Positions 336 through 5,282 of a DNA stretch of 5,282 nucleotides are shown here, piece after piece. Within the stretch, counting starts at the first letter, position 1. Each line of letters opens with the position of its first letter. The stretch is from a virus. Location: positions 1 through 5,282 of IMG/VR virus record IMGVR_UViG_3300029183_000168; one strand, given 5' to 3'. The notes beneath the pieces are model-generated. The model had not been told where the DNA came from, made no database searches, and was given only the letters and a program-made list of their open reading frames with translations. The translations under genes were made by a program, and so were the position numbers.

Positions 336-782
336 ATGGGTATGTTCACTCGTGATCCGCGTCCTGGTGTTGATACGGGTCCTGGCCGTACTAAGCAGTC
401 ATTTAGAGATGATTGCGATATTAATGTTATTGTAGAGAAGCATGCTAAGACTGGTTTTCTGAATGCTTTGCAGGTGCCACCGCCAATGTATTTGGATTTG
501 GCTAGTGTTCCTGACTATCAGACTGCGGCTAATTATATGGCTACGTCTGAACAGTATTTTATGACTTTGCCTGCCCAGGTACGTGCTGAGTTTCAGAATG
601 ATGTTTCGCAGTTTATTGATTTCCTTGCGCAACCTGATGCGCATGAGAGGTTGAAGGATGTTGGACTAGCGGCAATTGATGAGATTGCTGATGATCCTAA
701 GTTGCCTGAACCGGAGCCTGTGGCTGGAGCGGATGCCCCGGTGCCGGCACCGGATGTTCCTGCTACGGATGTAAATCCGTAA
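336..782 (+). CDS. VP3: Internal scaffolding protein VP3 (gokushovirus-type)
   Basis: The ORF encodes 148 aa. A GAGG at 324..327 lies 8 nt upstream of the ATG, and the start is 2 nt after the VP2 stop. The N-terminal ...TKQSFRDDCDINVIVEKHAKTG... block matches what I recall as the conserved gokushovirus VP3 signature. Its position after VP2 is canonical. A second in-frame ATG at 342 is an alternative start. Confidence 0.8.
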   Translation: MGMFTRDPRPGVDTGPGRTKQSFRDDCDINVIVEKHAKTGFLNALQVPPPMYLDLASVPDYQTAANYMATSEQYFMTLPAQVRAEFQNDVSQFIDFLAQPDAHERLKDVGLAAIDEIADDPKLPEPEPVAGADAPVPAPDVPATDVNP

Positions 783-985: not shown

Positions 986-1062
986 GCACACTTACTTCTT
1001 GCTGTAAGTGTGCCGACTGACACCGTCAGTCAGAGGGGGCCCCCTTGACAGAGGACCCCCTC
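986..1062. other. Three consecutive perfect stem-loops
   Basis: The first pairs gcacacttac (986..995) with gtaagtgtgc (1004..1013), 10 bp, around the loop ttcttgct. The second pairs gactgac (1015..1021) with gtcagtc (1025..1031), 7 bp, around the loop acc. The third pairs gaggggg (1033..1039) with ccccctc (1056..1062), 7 bp. The third stem-loop also contains the 12-nt palindrome AGGGGGCCCCCT (1034..1045). Confidence 0.7.
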
Positions 1063-1073
1063 GGTGTTATGTT
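1045..1073 (+). promoter_or_regulatory. Candidate sigma70-type + strand promoter
   Basis: The -35 element TTGACA (1045..1050) is a perfect consensus. A 17-nt spacer follows, then an extended -10 TG (1065..1066) and the -10 hexamer TATGTT (1068..1073, 4/6). It sits just downstream of the terminator, which is the logical position for driving a genome-length + strand transcript. The predicted start is near 1080. Confidence 0.4.
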
Positions 1074-1077
1074 TAAT

Positions 1078-1338
1078 TTATTTCTTCTTCTTTGGTGTTT
1101 CGATCTCCATTTGGTTTGGATCGGTTTCGCTGTCTTCGAGGAAAAGTATGTATGCTGAGGTTTGGTCGATGATGGCTCTCTGCCTGCGAGCCTTTGTGAG
1201 TAGGTTGGCTCTCATGGCTGTGAGTGCTGGATTTCCTGCTGGTGCTTGTGCGAGGTTGTTGAGTTCGGCCTCGGTTGCCTCGAGCGCTGCTTGCTGGCGC
1301 TGGAGCTTTGCGCGTTCGCGCGTCAGCGGAGTGGTCAT
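1078..1338 (-). CDS. Hypothetical 86-aa hydrophilic, predicted helical or coiled-coil protein with a KKKK C-terminus, encoded opposite to all other genes
   Basis: The ATG start (1338..1336) is preceded on the minus strand by AACAAGGAGGTCAA, a strong SD with 4-nt spacing. The amino-acid composition is balanced and protein-like (MTTPLTRERAKLQRQQAALEATEAELNNLAQ...). Codon position 1 is purine-rich and T-poor. A candidate promoter lies upstream and a bidirectional terminator lies downstream. I recognise no family. The fully overlapping + strand ORF 1064..1342 looks like its shadow (see noticed_but_rejected). Confidence 0.5.
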   Translation of the reverse strand: MTTPLTRERAKLQRQQAALEATEAELNNLAQAPAGNPALTAMRANLLTKARRQRAIIDQTSAYILFLEDSETDPNQMEIETPKKKK

Positions 1339-1365
1339 TTGACCTCCTTGTTAAGTGATACGTGT

Positions 1366-1394
1366 AATATAGTTGTTTCTTGGTCGAAGCGCAA
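1366..1394 (-). promoter_or_regulatory. Candidate sigma70-type promoter for the minus-strand ORF
   Basis: Read on the minus strand, the -35 element is TTGCGC (1394..1389, 3/6), followed by a 17-nt spacer and the -10 hexamer TATATT (1371..1366, 5/6). This would give a leader of roughly 20 nt that carries the AAGGAGG SD. Confidence 0.3.
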
Positions 1395-1422
1395 GTGTTT
1401 TTTGTAACAGGAGTGTAACAGT

Positions 1423-1779
1423 ATGAAGACGTGTTTGCAGATTGATTACGAAAGCCTGCGGTATTTCGAGGCGGATGAGTTTGATCATCCTGAGCGGATG
1501 AGTTTAGACTTCCTGTTACTTCTCGATCGCGTGCGTGGGCATGCGGGAGTTCCGTTTAGAATTTCGAGTGATTGGCGTGGCGACTCCCGTTCCCACGATA
1601 GCGGTTGTGCTGTTGATGTTTTATATGAGAATGAGACTGAGTTGTGGCATATTGTTTTTTCAGCTCAGTTGCTTGGTATTCGTCGGATCGGTATTTATGA
1701 TGAGCATGTGCATCTTGACATTGCTGATCGGACGATTTTCTTGCCGTCGCCCCGAATGTGGCACGGTATTTCTCGTTAG
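1423..1779 (+). CDS. Zinc D,D- or L,D-peptidase of the LAS/M15 superfamily (Peptidase_M15_3 / DUF882-like); candidate peptidoglycan hydrolase or endolysin
   Basis: The ORF encodes 118 aa. An AGGAG lies 9 nt upstream of the ATG. The H-x2-G-x-A-x-D motif SHDSGCAVD supplies H58 (1594..1596) and D65 (1615..1617). The H-x-H motif HVHLD supplies H95 and H97 (1705..1713). The surrounding pattern is F..DEF......M...FL..LD.VR...G.PF.I.S.WR. No signal peptide or TM segment is present. Confidence 0.75.
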   Translation: MKTCLQIDYESLRYFEADEFDHPERMSLDFLLLLDRVRGHAGVPFRISSDWRGDSRSHDSGCAVDVLYENETELWHIVFSAQLLGIRRIGIYDEHVHLDIADRTIFLPSPRMWHGISR

Positions 1780-1794
1780 CCTTGGAGGCTAATT

Positions 1795-1923
1795 ATGGCG
1801 AAGCGTCGCCGGATGTCTGGTCGTGGTTCGCGCCGTCAGTTTTCCCGTAGTGCCGGCGCTGGTTCTGTCCACCCTAAAAATCGGCTGCGTGCGCGGCCGA
1901 TGCGCGGAGGTATTCGTCTATAA
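1795..1923 (+). CDS. Small arginine-rich DNA-binding/packaging protein (phiX174 J / gokushovirus ORF8-VP8 analogue)
   Basis: This ORF is not in the supplied track. It encodes 42 aa: MAKRRRMSGRGSRRQFSRSAGAGSVHPKNRLRARPMRGGIRL. A GGAGG at 1784..1788 lies 6 nt before the ATG. Twelve of the 42 residues are R. The ...HPKN..RARPMRGGIRL C-terminus matches my recollection of gokushovirus ORF8-type proteins. Confidence 0.75.
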   Translation: MAKRRRMSGRGSRRQFSRSAGAGSVHPKNRLRARPMRGGIRL

Positions 1924-2030
1924 TGCCGGATGAAGTGATTCAGGCTTTGTCGTATTTGGTTGTGGCTTTTGTGAGCTGGTTCTTGCCTGCTCCGCGTTCT
2001 AAGAGTAAGCGTACTCGTAAGGACGACTAA
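1923..2030 (+). CDS. Hypothetical 35-aa single-pass membrane peptide with a basic C-terminal tail; holin or single-gene-lysis candidate
   Basis: This ORF is not in the supplied track. It encodes MPDEVIQALSYLVVAFVSWFLPAPRSKSKRTRKDD. Its ATG overlaps the stop of the preceding gene (TAATG at 1921..1925). Its stop at 2028..2030 lies 3 nt before the VP4 ATG, so the ORF exactly fills an otherwise non-coding 110-nt gap. Wobble positions are T/G-rich like the other + strand genes. A hydrophobic core of about 19 residues is followed by RSKSKRTRK. Confidence 0.45.
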   Translation: MPDEVIQALSYLVVAFVSWFLPAPRSKSKRTRKDD

Positions 2031-2033
2031 GCT

Positions 2034-2972
2034 ATGCCTTGTTATAAGCCTGTATATGGTTCGTATGCCAGAGGTAAGTTTATTCCGACTGGTGGCCATG
2101 CTGGTGATACTGCGATGGGCAGTGTTTCTTTTGGTACGCCTATGAGTGTGCCTTGTGGACGTTGCATTGGTTGCCGGTTGGAGAATTCCCGGCAGTGGGC
2201 TGTGCGTATGATGCATGAGGCCCAGATGCATGATGAGGTTTGTTTTTTGACGCTCACCTATGACAATGATCATGTCCCTGAGGATTACGGTCTTGTTAAG
2301 GATGAGTTTCCTTTGTTCATGAAGCGGCTGCGTAAGGAGATTTCTAAAGGCGACGATGGCCCGTATGGGCATCGGCAGGTTTCGTATTTCCATTGTGGTG
2401 AGTATGGTGATGAACGCAAGCGGCCCCATTACCATGCTGCCATGTTTGGTATTGATTGGCATGAGGATAGAGTGCTTGCCCGCATGTCTAAGGGCGGTTA
2501 TCCCTTGCTGTGTTCTCCACGTCTTAATAAGACGTGGGGTAAAGGTGAAGTCACTATCGGTGACTTGACCTTCGAGTCTGCTGCGTATATTGCGCGTTAT
2601 GTGACTAAGAAGGTGACTGGTGCTAAAGCTGAGACTCACTATGAGCGTGTTGATAGTGAGACCGGTGAGATTTATTCTGTTGAGCCTGAGTTCGCCACCA
2701 TGTCGCGTAATCCTGCTATTGGTAAGCGGTGGATTGAGAAGTTCCATGAGGAAGTTTTTTCCCATGATGAGGTAATTTCGCGTGGCGTTCCTGCTAAACC
2801 TCCGAGGTATTATGATAAGTTCCACGAGAAGATTGACCCGGAGGCGGCGGAAGCCGTGCGTAGGAAGCGTATGCGTGCGTTTGACGCTCGCGAGGGTACT
2901 GCGTCGCGACTCGGTGTGCGTGAGGTGTGCGCTGAAGCTGGTTTGTCTTTAACTCCCCGAGGTGATGTGTGA
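2034..2972 (+). CDS. VP4: Rolling-circle replication initiator protein VP4 (HUH endonuclease, phiX174 A-like)
   Basis: The ORF encodes 312 aa. An AAGGA lies 10 nt upstream. The N-terminal PCGRCIGCRLENSRQWAVRMMHE block is present. Motif 1 is FLTLTYD. The HUH motif is PHYHAAMF, with H132-Y-H134 at 2427..2435. The twin catalytic tyrosines lie in YIARYVTKK, with Y185 at 2586..2588 and Y189 at 2598..2600. Confidence 0.92.
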   Translation: MPCYKPVYGSYARGKFIPTGGHAGDTAMGSVSFGTPMSVPCGRCIGCRLENSRQWAVRMMHEAQMHDEVCFLTLTYDNDHVPEDYGLVKDEFPLFMKRLRKEISKGDDGPYGHRQVSYFHCGEYGDERKRPHYHAAMFGIDWHEDRVLARMSKGGYPLLCSPRLNKTWGKGEVTIGDLTFESAAYIARYVTKKVTGAKAETHYERVDSETGEIYSVEPEFATMSRNPAIGKRWIEKFHEEVFSHDEVISRGVPAKPPRYYDKFHEKIDPEAAEAVRRKRMRAFDAREGTASRLGVREVCAEAGLSLTPRGDV

Positions 2973-3259
2973 AGATTTTTGCGATTTATGATGATAAGTC
3001 TATGGCTTTTCAGCGGCCGTTTCCTGGTGAGACGGCTGGAGTGGTTACTCGTTCGTTGACGGATGTAGTTAATGACCCCAACCATGAGTTTTGTAAGTAT
3101 ACTGAGGATTTTATTCTGCATGAGCTGGGTGAATTTGATGAGCGGACAGGCGTGATCACCCCTTGTGAGACTGGCCCTGTCGTCGTGTGCCGGCTCTCGG
3201 CGCTCAAGGTGACCGGGACCCCTGAGCTGGTCGACGAGGCCAGGGAGGCGATGAAATGA
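2969..3259 (+). CDS. Small conserved gokushovirus non-structural protein (ORF5-like), function unknown
   Basis: The ORF encodes 96 aa. Its GTG start at 2969 overlaps the VP4 stop (GTGA). A GAGG at 2959..2962 lies 6 nt upstream. The sequence (M)KIFAIYDDKSMAFQRPF...VNDPNHEFCKYTEDFILHELGEFDERTG resembles a small protein I recall between VP4 and VP1 in gokushoviruses. The first in-frame ATG is at 3002, which would remove the conserved-looking N-terminus. Confidence 0.7.
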   Translation: MKIFAIYDDKSMAFQRPFPGETAGVVTRSLTDVVNDPNHEFCKYTEDFILHELGEFDERTGVITPCETGPVVVCRLSALKVTGTPELVDEAREAMK

Positions 3260-4857
3260 TGCGTGTGCCATCCACTCAACAGCATCGTTTCAGTGAGGTT
3301 CCACAGGCGAATATCCCGCGTTCGTCGTTTGATCGTTCGCATGGATATAAGACTACTTTTGATGCTGGTTATTTGATTCCGTTCTATTGTGATGAAGCGT
3401 TACCAGGTGATACGTTTAGTATGCGTGTTACTGCTTTTGCGCGATTAGCTACGCCGCTTAAGCCCATAATGGACAACTTGTTTATGGACTTTTTCTTTTT
3501 TGCGGTGCCTAATCGGTTGCTTTGGAATAATTGGGAGAAGTTCAATGGAGCCCAGGATGATCCGGGAGATAGCATTAGTTTTACTGTGCCAACTGTGTCT
3601 GGTTCTAATTTCCCTGCTGCTGGCTCTCTTGAGGATTATTTCGGTATTCCTGTTGCTGATTATAGCCCTGAAACTGTTACTTGGAACAACCTTCATGGAC
3701 GGGCATATAATTTTATTTGGAATGACTGGTTTAGAGATGAGAATCTACAGGATAGTGTAGTTGTTGATTTAGATGATGGCCCGGACAATCGTTCGGATTA
3801 TGTGTTGTTGAAGCGTGGCAAGCGCCATGATTATTTTACTTCGTGCTTGCCTTGGCCGCAGAAGGGTACTGCTGTTTCGATTCCTCTTGGTACGCAGGCT
3901 CCTGTAAAGGGTATTGGTAAGGAGTCTCTTGCTGAGACGACTGGTTCACAGACTGTGTTCGAGACTGGTGAGAGTGCTGCAACGTCTTTCGCTCGTTGGC
4001 ATAGTTTTGCTTCTGGTGGTGCTGATGAGATTTTCGTGGAGACTGTATCGCCGGGATATCCGGCTGTTTTTGCTGATCTTACTAATGCTACCGCTGCTAC
4101 TATTAATGACCTGCGTAATGCTTTCCAGACGCAGAAGTTGATTGAGCGTGATGCGCGTGGTGGTACTAGGTATATTGAGATTGTGCGTTCACACTTTGGT
4201 GTCATTTCGGATGATGCACGGATGCAGCGCCCCGAGTATCTCGGTGGTGGTACTGTTATGGTTAATGTGAGCCCTGTTGCTAATACTTCTGGTAATACCG
4301 GAGGTTCTGAGAATGTTAATCAAGGTGACCTGGCCGCGTTTGGTACTGCTTCTGCTCATGGTATTGGTTTTCATAAGTCTTTTACCGAGCATTGTACTTT
4401 ACTTGGTCTTGTTTGTGTCCGCGCTGATTTGACGTATCAGCAAGGTATGGAGCGTATGTGGTCGCGCCAGACTCGGTATGATTTTTATTGGCCGGCTCTG
4501 GCTCATATTGGTGAGCAAGCGGTTCTGAATAAGGAGATTTATACTACTGGCGTGGATGCTACTGATGATGCTGTTTTTGGTTATCAAGAGCGTTATGCGG
4601 AGTACCGGTATAAGCCTTCGAGGTTGACTGGCCTAATGCGTTCGACGCAAACTAATAGTTTGGATATCTGGCATTTGGGTCAAGAGTTTACTACTGCTCC
4701 TGCGCTTAATGCCGCCTTTATTGAGGAGAATCCTCCTGTCGATCGTGTCATTGCTGTGACTACTGAGCCGCATTTTATTTTTGATGCTTATCTTAGTCTC
4801 CGGTGTGCTCGACCGATGCCGTTGTACGGTGTTCCTGGTAATATTGATAGGTTCTAA
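3256..4857 (+). CDS. VP1: Major capsid protein VP1 (Microviridae F-protein family)
   Basis: The ORF encodes 533 aa. An AGGGAGG lies 7 nt upstream, and the ATG overlaps the previous stop (ATGA). The hallmark blocks FSEVPQANIPRSSFDRSHGYKTTFDAGYLIPFYCDEALPGDTF, MDNLFMDFFFFAVPNRLLW and TINDLRNAFQTQKLIERDARGGTRYIEIVRSHFGV are present. Confidence 0.95.
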   Translation: MMRVPSTQQHRFSEVPQANIPRSSFDRSHGYKTTFDAGYLIPFYCDEALPGDTFSMRVTAFARLATPLKPIMDNLFMDFFFFAVPNRLLWNNWEKFNGAQDDPGDSISFTVPTVSGSNFPAAGSLEDYFGIPVADYSPETVTWNNLHGRAYNFIWNDWFRDENLQDSVVVDLDDGPDNRSDYVLLKRGKRHDYFTSCLPWPQKGTAVSIPLGTQAPVKGIGKESLAETTGSQTVFETGESAATSFARWHSFASGGADEIFVETVSPGYPAVFADLTNATAATINDLRNAFQTQKLIERDARGGTRYIEIVRSHFGVISDDARMQRPEYLGGGTVMVNVSPVANTSGNTGGSENVNQGDLAAFGTASAHGIGFHKSFTEHCTLLGLVCVRADLTYQQGMERMWSRQTRYDFYWPALAHIGEQAVLNKEIYTTGVDATDDAVFGYQERYAEYRYKPSRLTGLMRSTQTNSLDIWHLGQEFTTAPALNAAFIEENPPVDRVIAVTTEPHFIFDAYLSLRCARPMPLYGVPGNIDRF

Positions 4858-4859
4858 TT

Positions 4860-5282
4860 ATGGATCCGCTGACTATCGCTGCTGTTGGCTTGCCTTTGTT
4901 AGGTGCTGCTTCTTCGGCTTTTGGTCAACGCTCTGCTAATAAGACTAATGTTAAATTGGCGCGTGAGCGCATGCAGTTTGAAGAGCAGATGAGTTCTACT
5001 GCTTGGCAACGTGGTACTGATGATATGCGTAAAGCTGGCATCAATCCTATGTTGGCCGCTGGTCTTGGTGGTGCTACCGGTGGTAGTGGTGCGCAGGCTC
5101 AAGTTGGTAATGTTGGTGCTGCTGCTACCGAAGGTGCATCTAGTGCTATGGCTATGCGTGTTGCTAAGAAGAATGTTGATCTCATGGACCAGAATATTCA
5201 GCATGCTCGTGCTGTTACTGCTAAGGAGAAGTGGCTTGGTGACCAGGAGTTGTTGAAGTATCGTGCTGCTGAGGCTCGTTAT
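4860..5282 (+). CDS. VP2: DNA pilot (minor capsid) protein VP2, N-terminal part. It is open to the window end and continues at 1..333 in the circular molecule, giving 218 aa in total.
   Basis: This ORF is not in the track because it has no stop within the window. The ATG at 4860 lies 2 nt after the VP1 stop. I translated it by hand with no stop through 5282: MDPLTIAAVGLPLLGAASSAFGQRSANKTNVKLARERMQFEEQMSSTAWQRGTDDMRKAGINPMLAAGLGG... The block N..LA....FQE.MS.TA.QR...DM..AG.NPMLA is, as I recall it, the conserved VP2 signature. Confidence 0.88.
   Translation, partial: MDPLTIAAVGLPLLGAASSAFGQRSANKTNVKLARERMQFEEQMSSTAWQRGTDDMRKAGINPMLAAGLGGATGGSGAQAQVGNVGAAATEGASSAMAMRVAKKNVDLMDQNIQHARAVTAKEKWLGDQELLKYRAAEARY
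5184..5282. repeat. Terminal direct repeat, copy 2, identical to 1..99
   Basis: It is an exact 99-nt match to the start of the window. Confidence 0.95.

Follow-up and report, generated by a model that had tools for sequence, protein, structure and literature searches.

A reverse-strand reading frame in a microvirus genome

No ssDNA phages are more abundant than the microviruses, whose genomes are regarded as strictly unidirectional, and the largest microvirus census removed reverse-strand genes by rule. Whether such a genome can hold a genuine gene on the opposite strand is the question raised by one locus of the window, i.e., the whole 5282-base stretch of DNA analysed here. An earlier note, made from the sequence alone, had claimed an 86-aa ORF with an ATG start on the minus strand, and this ORF is indeed present at 1078-1338. 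Here, we provide evidence that this ORF is very likely genuine, i.e., that it codes for a protein from the complementary (non-packaged) strand of a microvirus of the gokushovirus type, and we consider what its product and its position might mean for the phage.

The window contains a circular genome of 5183 nt, with bases 1-99 repeated at 5184-5282 as a terminal direct repeat; because this repeat begins at 5184, the 5183-nt unit is a complete circle, and VP2 spans its junction (Table 1). The genome is that of a gokushovirus-type microvirus. Its F-type major capsid protein, Chp2-type scaffold, Rep (VP4) and ORF5 (VP5) matched PF02305 (4e-176), PF09675 (9e-32), PF23343 (1e-19) and PF20577 (4e-22), respectively, PHROG matches agreed with these Pfam assignments, and the gokushovirus-type core genes all lie on the + strand. 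The + strand operon is opened, after a 343-nt leader, by orf118, whose product is 27-35% identical (tblastn) to annotated tailed-phage endolysins and M15-type peptidases, as well as to features labelled 'similar to peptidase' in a few microviruses. It had no match in Pfam or NCBIfam, and its PHROG endolysin match was sub-threshold (E 0.04).

Table 1 Features of the window discussed in the text, in order of position on the circle from VP1.
Feature	Position	Strand	Basis
VP1, F capsid	3256-4857	+	
VP2	4860 through junction to 333	+	
VP3, Chp2-type scaffold	336-782	+	
Bidirectional intrinsic terminator	914-953	both	hairpin flanked by A-run and T-run
Promoter P-plus: TTGACA, 17-nt spacer, extended -10 TG-n-TATGTT	1045-1073	+	consensus match and conservation
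Very likely protein-coding gene, 86 aa, ATG start, stop codon included	1078-1338	-	ORF list, sibling orthologue, frame-specific selection
Shine-Dalgarno (SD) site AAGGAGGT	1342-1349	-	single copy on either strand; 3 nt before ATG
Candidate promoter P-minus: -35 TTGCGC (1389-1394), 17-nt spacer, -10 TATATT (1366-1371)	1366-1394	-	consensus match and conservation
Direct repeat TGTAACAG-N3-TGTAACAG	1403-1421	+	conserved in sibling as TGTAACAG-N3-TGTGACAG
orf118, diverged M15-type peptidase, putative endolysin	1423-1779	+	tblastn
J-like protein, 42 aa, arginine-rich	1795-1923	+	
VP4, Rep	2034-2972	+	
VP5	2969-3259	+	

Several further features of the genome are worth noting. The orf118 product is without a signal peptide. 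After the J-like gene, a 35-aa ORF (1923-2030) encodes one hydrophobic helix and a basic tail. The ORF at the matching position (2884-3024) of the sibling genome described below (L008) is not homologous to it and encodes 46 aa, with a hydrophobic helix at the C-terminus; either product could be a membrane-active partner of the peptidase. Just 3' of VP3 lies a GC-rich segment of ~120 nt (783-912) that is missing from the sibling genome. As ssDNA it folds into a long hairpin of ~31 bp and two small hairpins (-44 kcal/mol, z = -5.9), and it might serve to prime the complementary strand or might represent a palindromic element that was inserted.

The minus ORF adjoins the M15-type peptidase gene on the complementary strand, with the two start codons 84 nt apart. 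Antisense shadow ORFs in this genome reach 329 aa; long reverse ORFs thus exist by chance, and ORF length by itself proves nothing here. The 329-aa example (1836-2825, minus strand, opposite VP4) has stops in both genomes in the aligned frame and an omega of ~0.9. The earlier note had also taken the hydrophilic character of the protein as a sign that it is real, which we consider a weak argument, as other ORFs on the A/C-rich minus strand seem polar-rich too (translations inspected by eye).

Third positions of the minus ORF are composed of A 0.37, C 0.36, G 0.22 and T 0.06, and those of the + strand genes of T 0.37-0.56 and A 0.06-0.11. The A/C-ending codons noticed earlier are therefore confirmed as unlike those of the other genes, the wobble composition of the minus ORF mirroring that of every + gene. 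This mirrored composition fits the strand bias in both lineages that carry the ORF, which indicates that the minus orientation is old, and the earlier argument against a recent inversion holds. As such, the minus gene represents a clean case of codon usage set by the mutation bias of the strand and not by the pattern of its neighbours.

An orphan protein shared by two lineages

The minus protein is an orphan, with matches limited to its own lineage and one sibling. It retrieved itself alone from an index of 5.8 billion proteins, and an exhaustive HMMER scan of 1.84 billion representatives returned only the query and a Kelch-like repeat protein (P0004), which we rejected as spurious because its score was built from five weak repeat matches. 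Similarly, tblastn of the 86-aa protein against 50,697 GenBank phage records gave no match at E values up to 10. All contigs carrying the protein were identical copies of the window genome (JGI, two Logan runs).

It was a homologue of orf118 (P0003, 71% identity) that led to the sibling genome. The contigs encoding P0003 (L008-L012, from independent ENA and Logan assemblies) represent a genome of ~5.1 kb with a gene order matching that of the window, and in L008 gene callers put an 88-aa minus-strand gene at the same position. The two minus proteins are 61-62% identical with a single 1-aa internal gap, and the genomes share 63% nucleotide identity over the ORF. Profile-seeded locus searches gave no match in IMG/VR or the JGI metagenomes and one in GTDB (L013, a Litoreibacter MAG), where the motif 'ELNNLAQAP' falls within a 502-aa ORF, sulfatase-like by sequence, on a chromosomal contig; we regard this match as chance. 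A capsid fragment with 79% VP1 identity (P0006) was considered as a third lineage, but it comes from the same sample as L012 and was taken as the VP1 fragment of the sibling lineage. Overall, across 5.8 and 1.84 billion proteins, IMG/VR, JGI metagenomes, GTDB and GenBank phages, the window and L008 are the only lineages with the minus gene. The next-nearest capsids are at most 68% identical and belong to ordinary genomes of 4.1-4.6 kb; in the two of these that we inspected, all called genes lie on one strand and the module is absent. Within each lineage all copies are identical over the minus ORF, i.e., there is no within-lineage polymorphism.

Frame-specific selection on the minus ORF

We compared the window and L008 frame by frame, so that the evidence on selection comes from one pairwise comparison between two lineages, with synonymous sites near saturation. 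Across 85 aligned codons of the minus frame, substitutions at codon positions 1, 2 and 3 numbered 26, 21 and 47 (p = 0.002), and pS was 0.66 vs a pN of 0.28 (Fisher p = 5e-7). Omega of the minus ORF was 0.226 in a protein-guided alignment and 0.28-0.29 in nucleotide-only alignments; for VP3, VP4, VP5, the J-like gene and orf118 of the same genome pair it was 0.26-0.45. In a six-frame test, the minus frame alone was open in both genomes, and it had the top identity (62%) and the top BLOSUM sum (253). The + frame that shares its wobble positions had an identity of 52-54% and a BLOSUM sum of 165, and was interrupted in the sibling by two stops in the protein-guided alignment and by one in the nucleotide-only alignment; the other long + frame has two stops in the window. 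Replacements were also more conservative in the minus frame (mean BLOSUM -0.38 vs -1.22 in the wobble-sharing + frame), although the omega margin between the two frames is moderate (0.23-0.29 vs 0.34-0.38).

The same six-frame test was calibrated on five known genes. The true frame ranked first in 5/5, with the wobble-sharing antisense shadow second (shadow-frame omega 0.45-0.62), and the minus ORF reproduces this true-frame signature. Because the first alignment had been guided by the minus-frame protein, we repeated the test on nucleotide-only alignments, where the gap runs were 6, 3 and 3 nt, all multiples of three, and the minus frame was still the best. Furthermore, we ran 20,000 neutral simulations with the observed substitution number and spectrum. 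The simulated protein identity was 36% with uniform placement and 44% with codon-position counts preserved vs 62% observed, and 0/20,000 runs reached the observed value. The minus frame stayed open in ~30% of neutral runs, and openness alone is hence not significant (P about 0.3).

Frame-by-frame comparison of selection in related genomes had been proposed in the earlier note, and it yields purifying selection together with codon periodicity in the minus frame. Where that note had named relatives that keep the + frame and break the minus frame as evidence against a gene, the sole diverged relative shows the reverse. The substitution pattern of the window-L008 pair thus indicates that the minus gene is kept by frame-specific purifying selection.

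These results bear on the other ways in which the locus could be read. A very improbable one is that the real gene is the hydrophobic 92-aa + ORF at 1064-1342, e.g., a membrane or lysis protein, and that the minus ORF is its shadow. This + ORF is open in the window, a membrane protein beside an endolysin would be biologically sensible, and long shadow ORFs do occur in this genome; in addition, its coordinates confirm the earlier claim that it shares wobble positions with the minus ORF, and it therefore inherits part of the conservation signal (omega 0.34-0.38). However, the stops in the sibling largely refute it. It starts with GTG and has no SD, its replacements are the less conservative ones, and its translation lacks D, N, Q, H and T, as had been pointed out from the sequence, in contrast to the real + strand genes; moreover, in every calibrated gene the true frame beats its shadow just as the minus frame beats this ORF.

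That the region is instead non-coding, serving the + operon as a 5' leader or as a group of cis-acting DNA elements, with an ORF open by chance and with RNA or DNA structure as the conserved property, we consider improbable. P-plus would yield a 343-nt leader over exactly the 1078-1338 stretch, the neighbouring non-coding blocks are strongly conserved, and the share of neutral simulations in which the frame stays open is in keeping with this reading. Yet three-base periodicity and a large synonymous excess are unexpected under structural constraint, every indel is a multiple of three, the stability of the leader RNA is unremarkable (z = -1.9), Rfam contains no match to it, and a leader would leave the conserved start codon and SD unexplained. 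It is barely conceivable that the arrangement arose through faulty assembly or through recent inversion of an ordinary + gene: chimeras are possible in metagenomic assemblies, but independent assemblies from several samples agree for both the window (JGI and two Logan runs) and the sibling (ENA and Logan), the arrangement is common to two lineages that are 37% diverged over the ORF, and the wobble composition speaks for an old orientation. We therefore continue with the minus ORF as a very likely gene.

Conserved expression signals and a convergent layout

Non-coding DNA has diverged between the window and the sibling apart from conserved islands, two of which, the SD and a promoter-like pair, lie on the minus strand. 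The SD of the minus ORF, AAGGAGGT, is the longest SD match of any gene in the genome, in agreement with the strong match described earlier. The spacer between SD and ATG, 3 nt in the window and 4 nt in the sibling (AGGAGG), lies near the lower limit of what is usual. Further upstream, the -10 of P-minus ends 27 nt before the ATG, and at the matching position the sibling carries TTGCGG and TATATT, likewise 17 nt apart, the spacer having diverged in sequence and kept its length. The claim of a plausible -35/-10 pair stands in that the hexamer pair is conserved in both genomes; its weak side is the -35, which matches 3/6 of the sigma-70 consensus and falls under the threshold of the scanner. For this reason, we call P-minus a plausible promoter only.

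On the other side of the gene, the terminator had been predicted to work in both orientations, and folding bears this out (-26.3 kcal/mol on the + strand and -23.9 on the minus strand; z = -5.7 and -5.4). It closes the VP1-VP2-VP3 block on the + strand and would also end a minus transcript. The terminator of the sibling is built in the same way around a stem of different sequence, and its minus side has just four U's.

P-plus is the top promoter-like site of the genome (10/12 plus TG) and the sole one in non-coding DNA, and its counterpart in the sibling is an identical site at the same position. It faces into the minus gene, its -10 ending 5 nt from the stop codon of the minus ORF. The earlier note had described a divergent placement beside the main promoter; the actual layout is convergent, because P-plus sits just beyond the minus stop codon and points inward. 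The two promoters are ~290 bp apart with the whole minus gene between them. A direct repeat, which reads TGTAACAG-N3-TGT(A/G)ACAG across both genomes, covers the orf118 ribosome-binding site and is located upstream of the -35 of P-minus; it is a possible operator or translational control site.

The region around P-plus is also structured. Three consecutive hairpins at 986-1062 (1960-2038 in L008) are conserved between both genomes, and a 36-nt block (997-1033) that includes the hairpin GACTGAC-ACC-GTCAGTC is 100% identical in window and sibling. A GC-rich stem in the same region differs in sequence between the genomes and keeps its pairing, and its loop holds TTGACA, the -35 of P-plus. The hairpin block is a candidate replication origin overlapping the main promoter, and, given the conserved hairpins, it may be replication, not transcription, that keeps the P-plus region conserved. 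When the hairpin block was used as a DNA search pattern, no viral match was obtained, and the seven metagenome matches were unrelated palindromes.

A predicted helical hairpin without known relatives

The minus protein is hydrophilic throughout, with 13 K+R, 11 D+E, no hydrophobic stretch and no Cys or His. AlphaFold2 run on the single sequence (mean pLDDT 87) gave helices at 4-30 and 37-71 joined by a short Pro/Ala loop, followed by a disordered C-terminal tail that is acidic and lysine-rich and ends in KKKK. The product is thus predicted to be a soluble antiparallel two-helix hairpin, and it probably pairs up into a helical bundle. The inter-helix loop reads AQAPAGNPA in the window and AQAPDQRPF in the sibling, and a conserved acidic tip is absent. 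Conserved polar positions include R7, E8, R9, K11, R14, Q15, Q16, N27, N28, Q31, R52, Q53, R54 and D58, numerous enough to hint at a specific binding partner.

The earlier note had seen neither a helix-turn-helix nor another known motif, and wider searches concur. Pfam, NCBIfam and PHROGs contain no helix-turn-helix match, and the model consists of two long helices only; sequence searches of Pfam, PHROGs, NCBIfam, PADLOC and PDB gave coiled-coil noise or no match, and Foldseek against PDB and a viral library gave generic two-helix hairpins, none at E <=0.001. The profile and structure searches suggested at the time hence returned no informative match. Some candidate functions can be set aside. 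A holin, spanin or single-gene lysis protein is ruled out by the hydrophilic, soluble hairpin model and because the protein has no transmembrane segment or signal sequence. A repressor of the CI/Cro/Cox/Apl type was rejected for want of a helix-turn-helix or winged-helix domain, and a DksA/TraR-like binder for want of cysteines and of a conserved acidic tip (Foldseek E >=1.7).

Possible roles and origin of the minus gene

A gene on the non-packaged strand is readable only from the replicative form, and the minus gene would accordingly be transcribed only after the incoming single strand has been converted to double-stranded DNA. Its transcript would start near 1359 from its own weak, sigma-70-type P-minus, cross the ORF and P-plus, and stop at the shared terminator, and the ORF would be translated through the very strong SD. 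In the other direction, a + transcript that begins near 1080 would run antisense to the minus gene throughout in its 343-nt leader and only then reach orf118; the two promoters would fire at each other across the entire minus gene. In the mechanism that we prefer, such a unit would slow or time the + operon (peptidase, J-like, Rep and later genes), by collision of RNA polymerases, by antisense pairing with the leader, by action of the protein on a promoter or host factor, or by a mix of these. We infer transcription and translation of the minus gene, oligomerisation of its product and a regulatory role from the features above. A brake or timer on the + strand operon is the most economical reading, since the minus gene lies between conserved facing promoters at the head of the operon; taken by itself, it is a tentative proposal and rather doubtful.

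Alternatively, the gene might encode a stand-alone accessory factor, e.g., for host takeover, for superinfection exclusion or as a lysis-timing partner of the peptidase, with the promoter layout being incidental. This is possible without being probable, and we consider it and the regulatory brake about equally likely. The position beside an M15 peptidase, shared with the sole published complementary-strand ORF of the family, is in line with an accessory role, as are the many conserved polar surface residues, which suggest a specific binding partner, and the fact that the whole module is missing from the nearest relatives. On the other hand, the protein has no transmembrane segment or signal sequence, it matches no defence or anti-defence family, and tailed-phage peptidase loci lack a neighbouring relative of it.

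Going further with the regulatory brake, the minus gene and the facing promoters could form a genetic switch in which antisense transcript and hairpin protein together hold down the operon for Rep, lysis and structural proteins, allowing the replicative form to persist as an episome (carrier state or pseudolysogeny) without an integrase. We rate this as unlikely; if true, the Microviridae would have a first dedicated regulatory circuit and, with it, a first validated ambisense organisation. The window genome contains no integrase, and a search for XerCD/dif sites with the E. coli motif only gave a best match of 17/28 to E. coli dif, no better than shuffled sequence.

We also considered that the minus gene was acquired together with the peptidase as a cassette and rejected this, as tailed-phage peptidase loci are same-direction lysis clusters without a relative of the minus protein. 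In two further microviruses with a peptidase gene, all annotated genes share one strand, and no such relative is present either. The minus gene may have arisen de novo in the leader or may have come from an unsampled source.

Comparison with known systems

The earlier note had stated that all known Microviridae genes are read in one sense, to which there is one published exception. In the gokushovirus Human_gut_33_003, Roux et al. 2012 (PMC3394797) described a 153-codon complementary-strand ORF beside an M15_3 peptidase gene, and the literature searched contained no further report of a complementary-strand microvirus gene. That ORF and the minus ORF are alike in that each lies on the complementary strand of a gokushovirus, adjoins a horizontally acquired M15-type peptidase gene and has no database homologues. 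The ORF of Roux et al. is about twice as long and comes from a single genome without comparative or signal evidence. The minus gene, in contrast, is backed by a diverged orthologue, by selection specific to its frame and by the conservation of its expression signals.

Other such genes may have been passed over by convention. Zucker et al. 2022 dropped opposite-direction genes in prophage curation, and later practice has assumed reverse-strand genes to be absent (Kirchberger et al.). A reverse-strand gene under selection implies that an orientation filter discards real genes, and re-mining thousands of microvirus genomes without the filter is justified. The head-on minus gene is, in addition, a testable candidate for the regulation behind the carrier-state or pseudolysogenic behaviour reported in gokushoviruses and other microviruses.

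At the level of the protein, the predicted fold resembles ColE1 Rop/Rom and the coiled coil of DksA, antiparallel two-helix hairpins of similar size, in a generic way only: Foldseek returned hundreds of hairpins, DksA chains among them with E values of about 2-3, and Rop was outside the top 50. Unlike DksA, the minus protein lacks both a Cys4 zinc finger and an acidic DxxDxA tip. The targets of Rop are pairs of sense and antisense RNA, which the minus locus should produce too.

At the level of the locus, coliphages 186 (pR/pL) and P2 (Pe/Pc) have face-to-face promoters, with transcription of a small gene opposing the lytic operon; these switches belong to integrating phages, employ helix-turn-helix repressors and have promoters tens of bases apart. 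The minus locus is like them in having two promoters that would fire toward each other, and unlike them in that its promoters are ~290 bp apart with a whole gene between, its protein has no helix-turn-helix and its genome no integrase. Circoviruses and geminiviruses, which have circular ssDNA, carry genes on both strands of the replicative form, with Rep and Cap split between strands as a family trait. Here, unlike in those viruses, one small accessory gene is reversed in one lineage of an otherwise unidirectional family. Both ambisense ssDNA viruses and switches built on convergent promoters are familiar from other systems, and the minus gene is therefore not a new biological category; it is an ambisense accessory gene of a microvirus.
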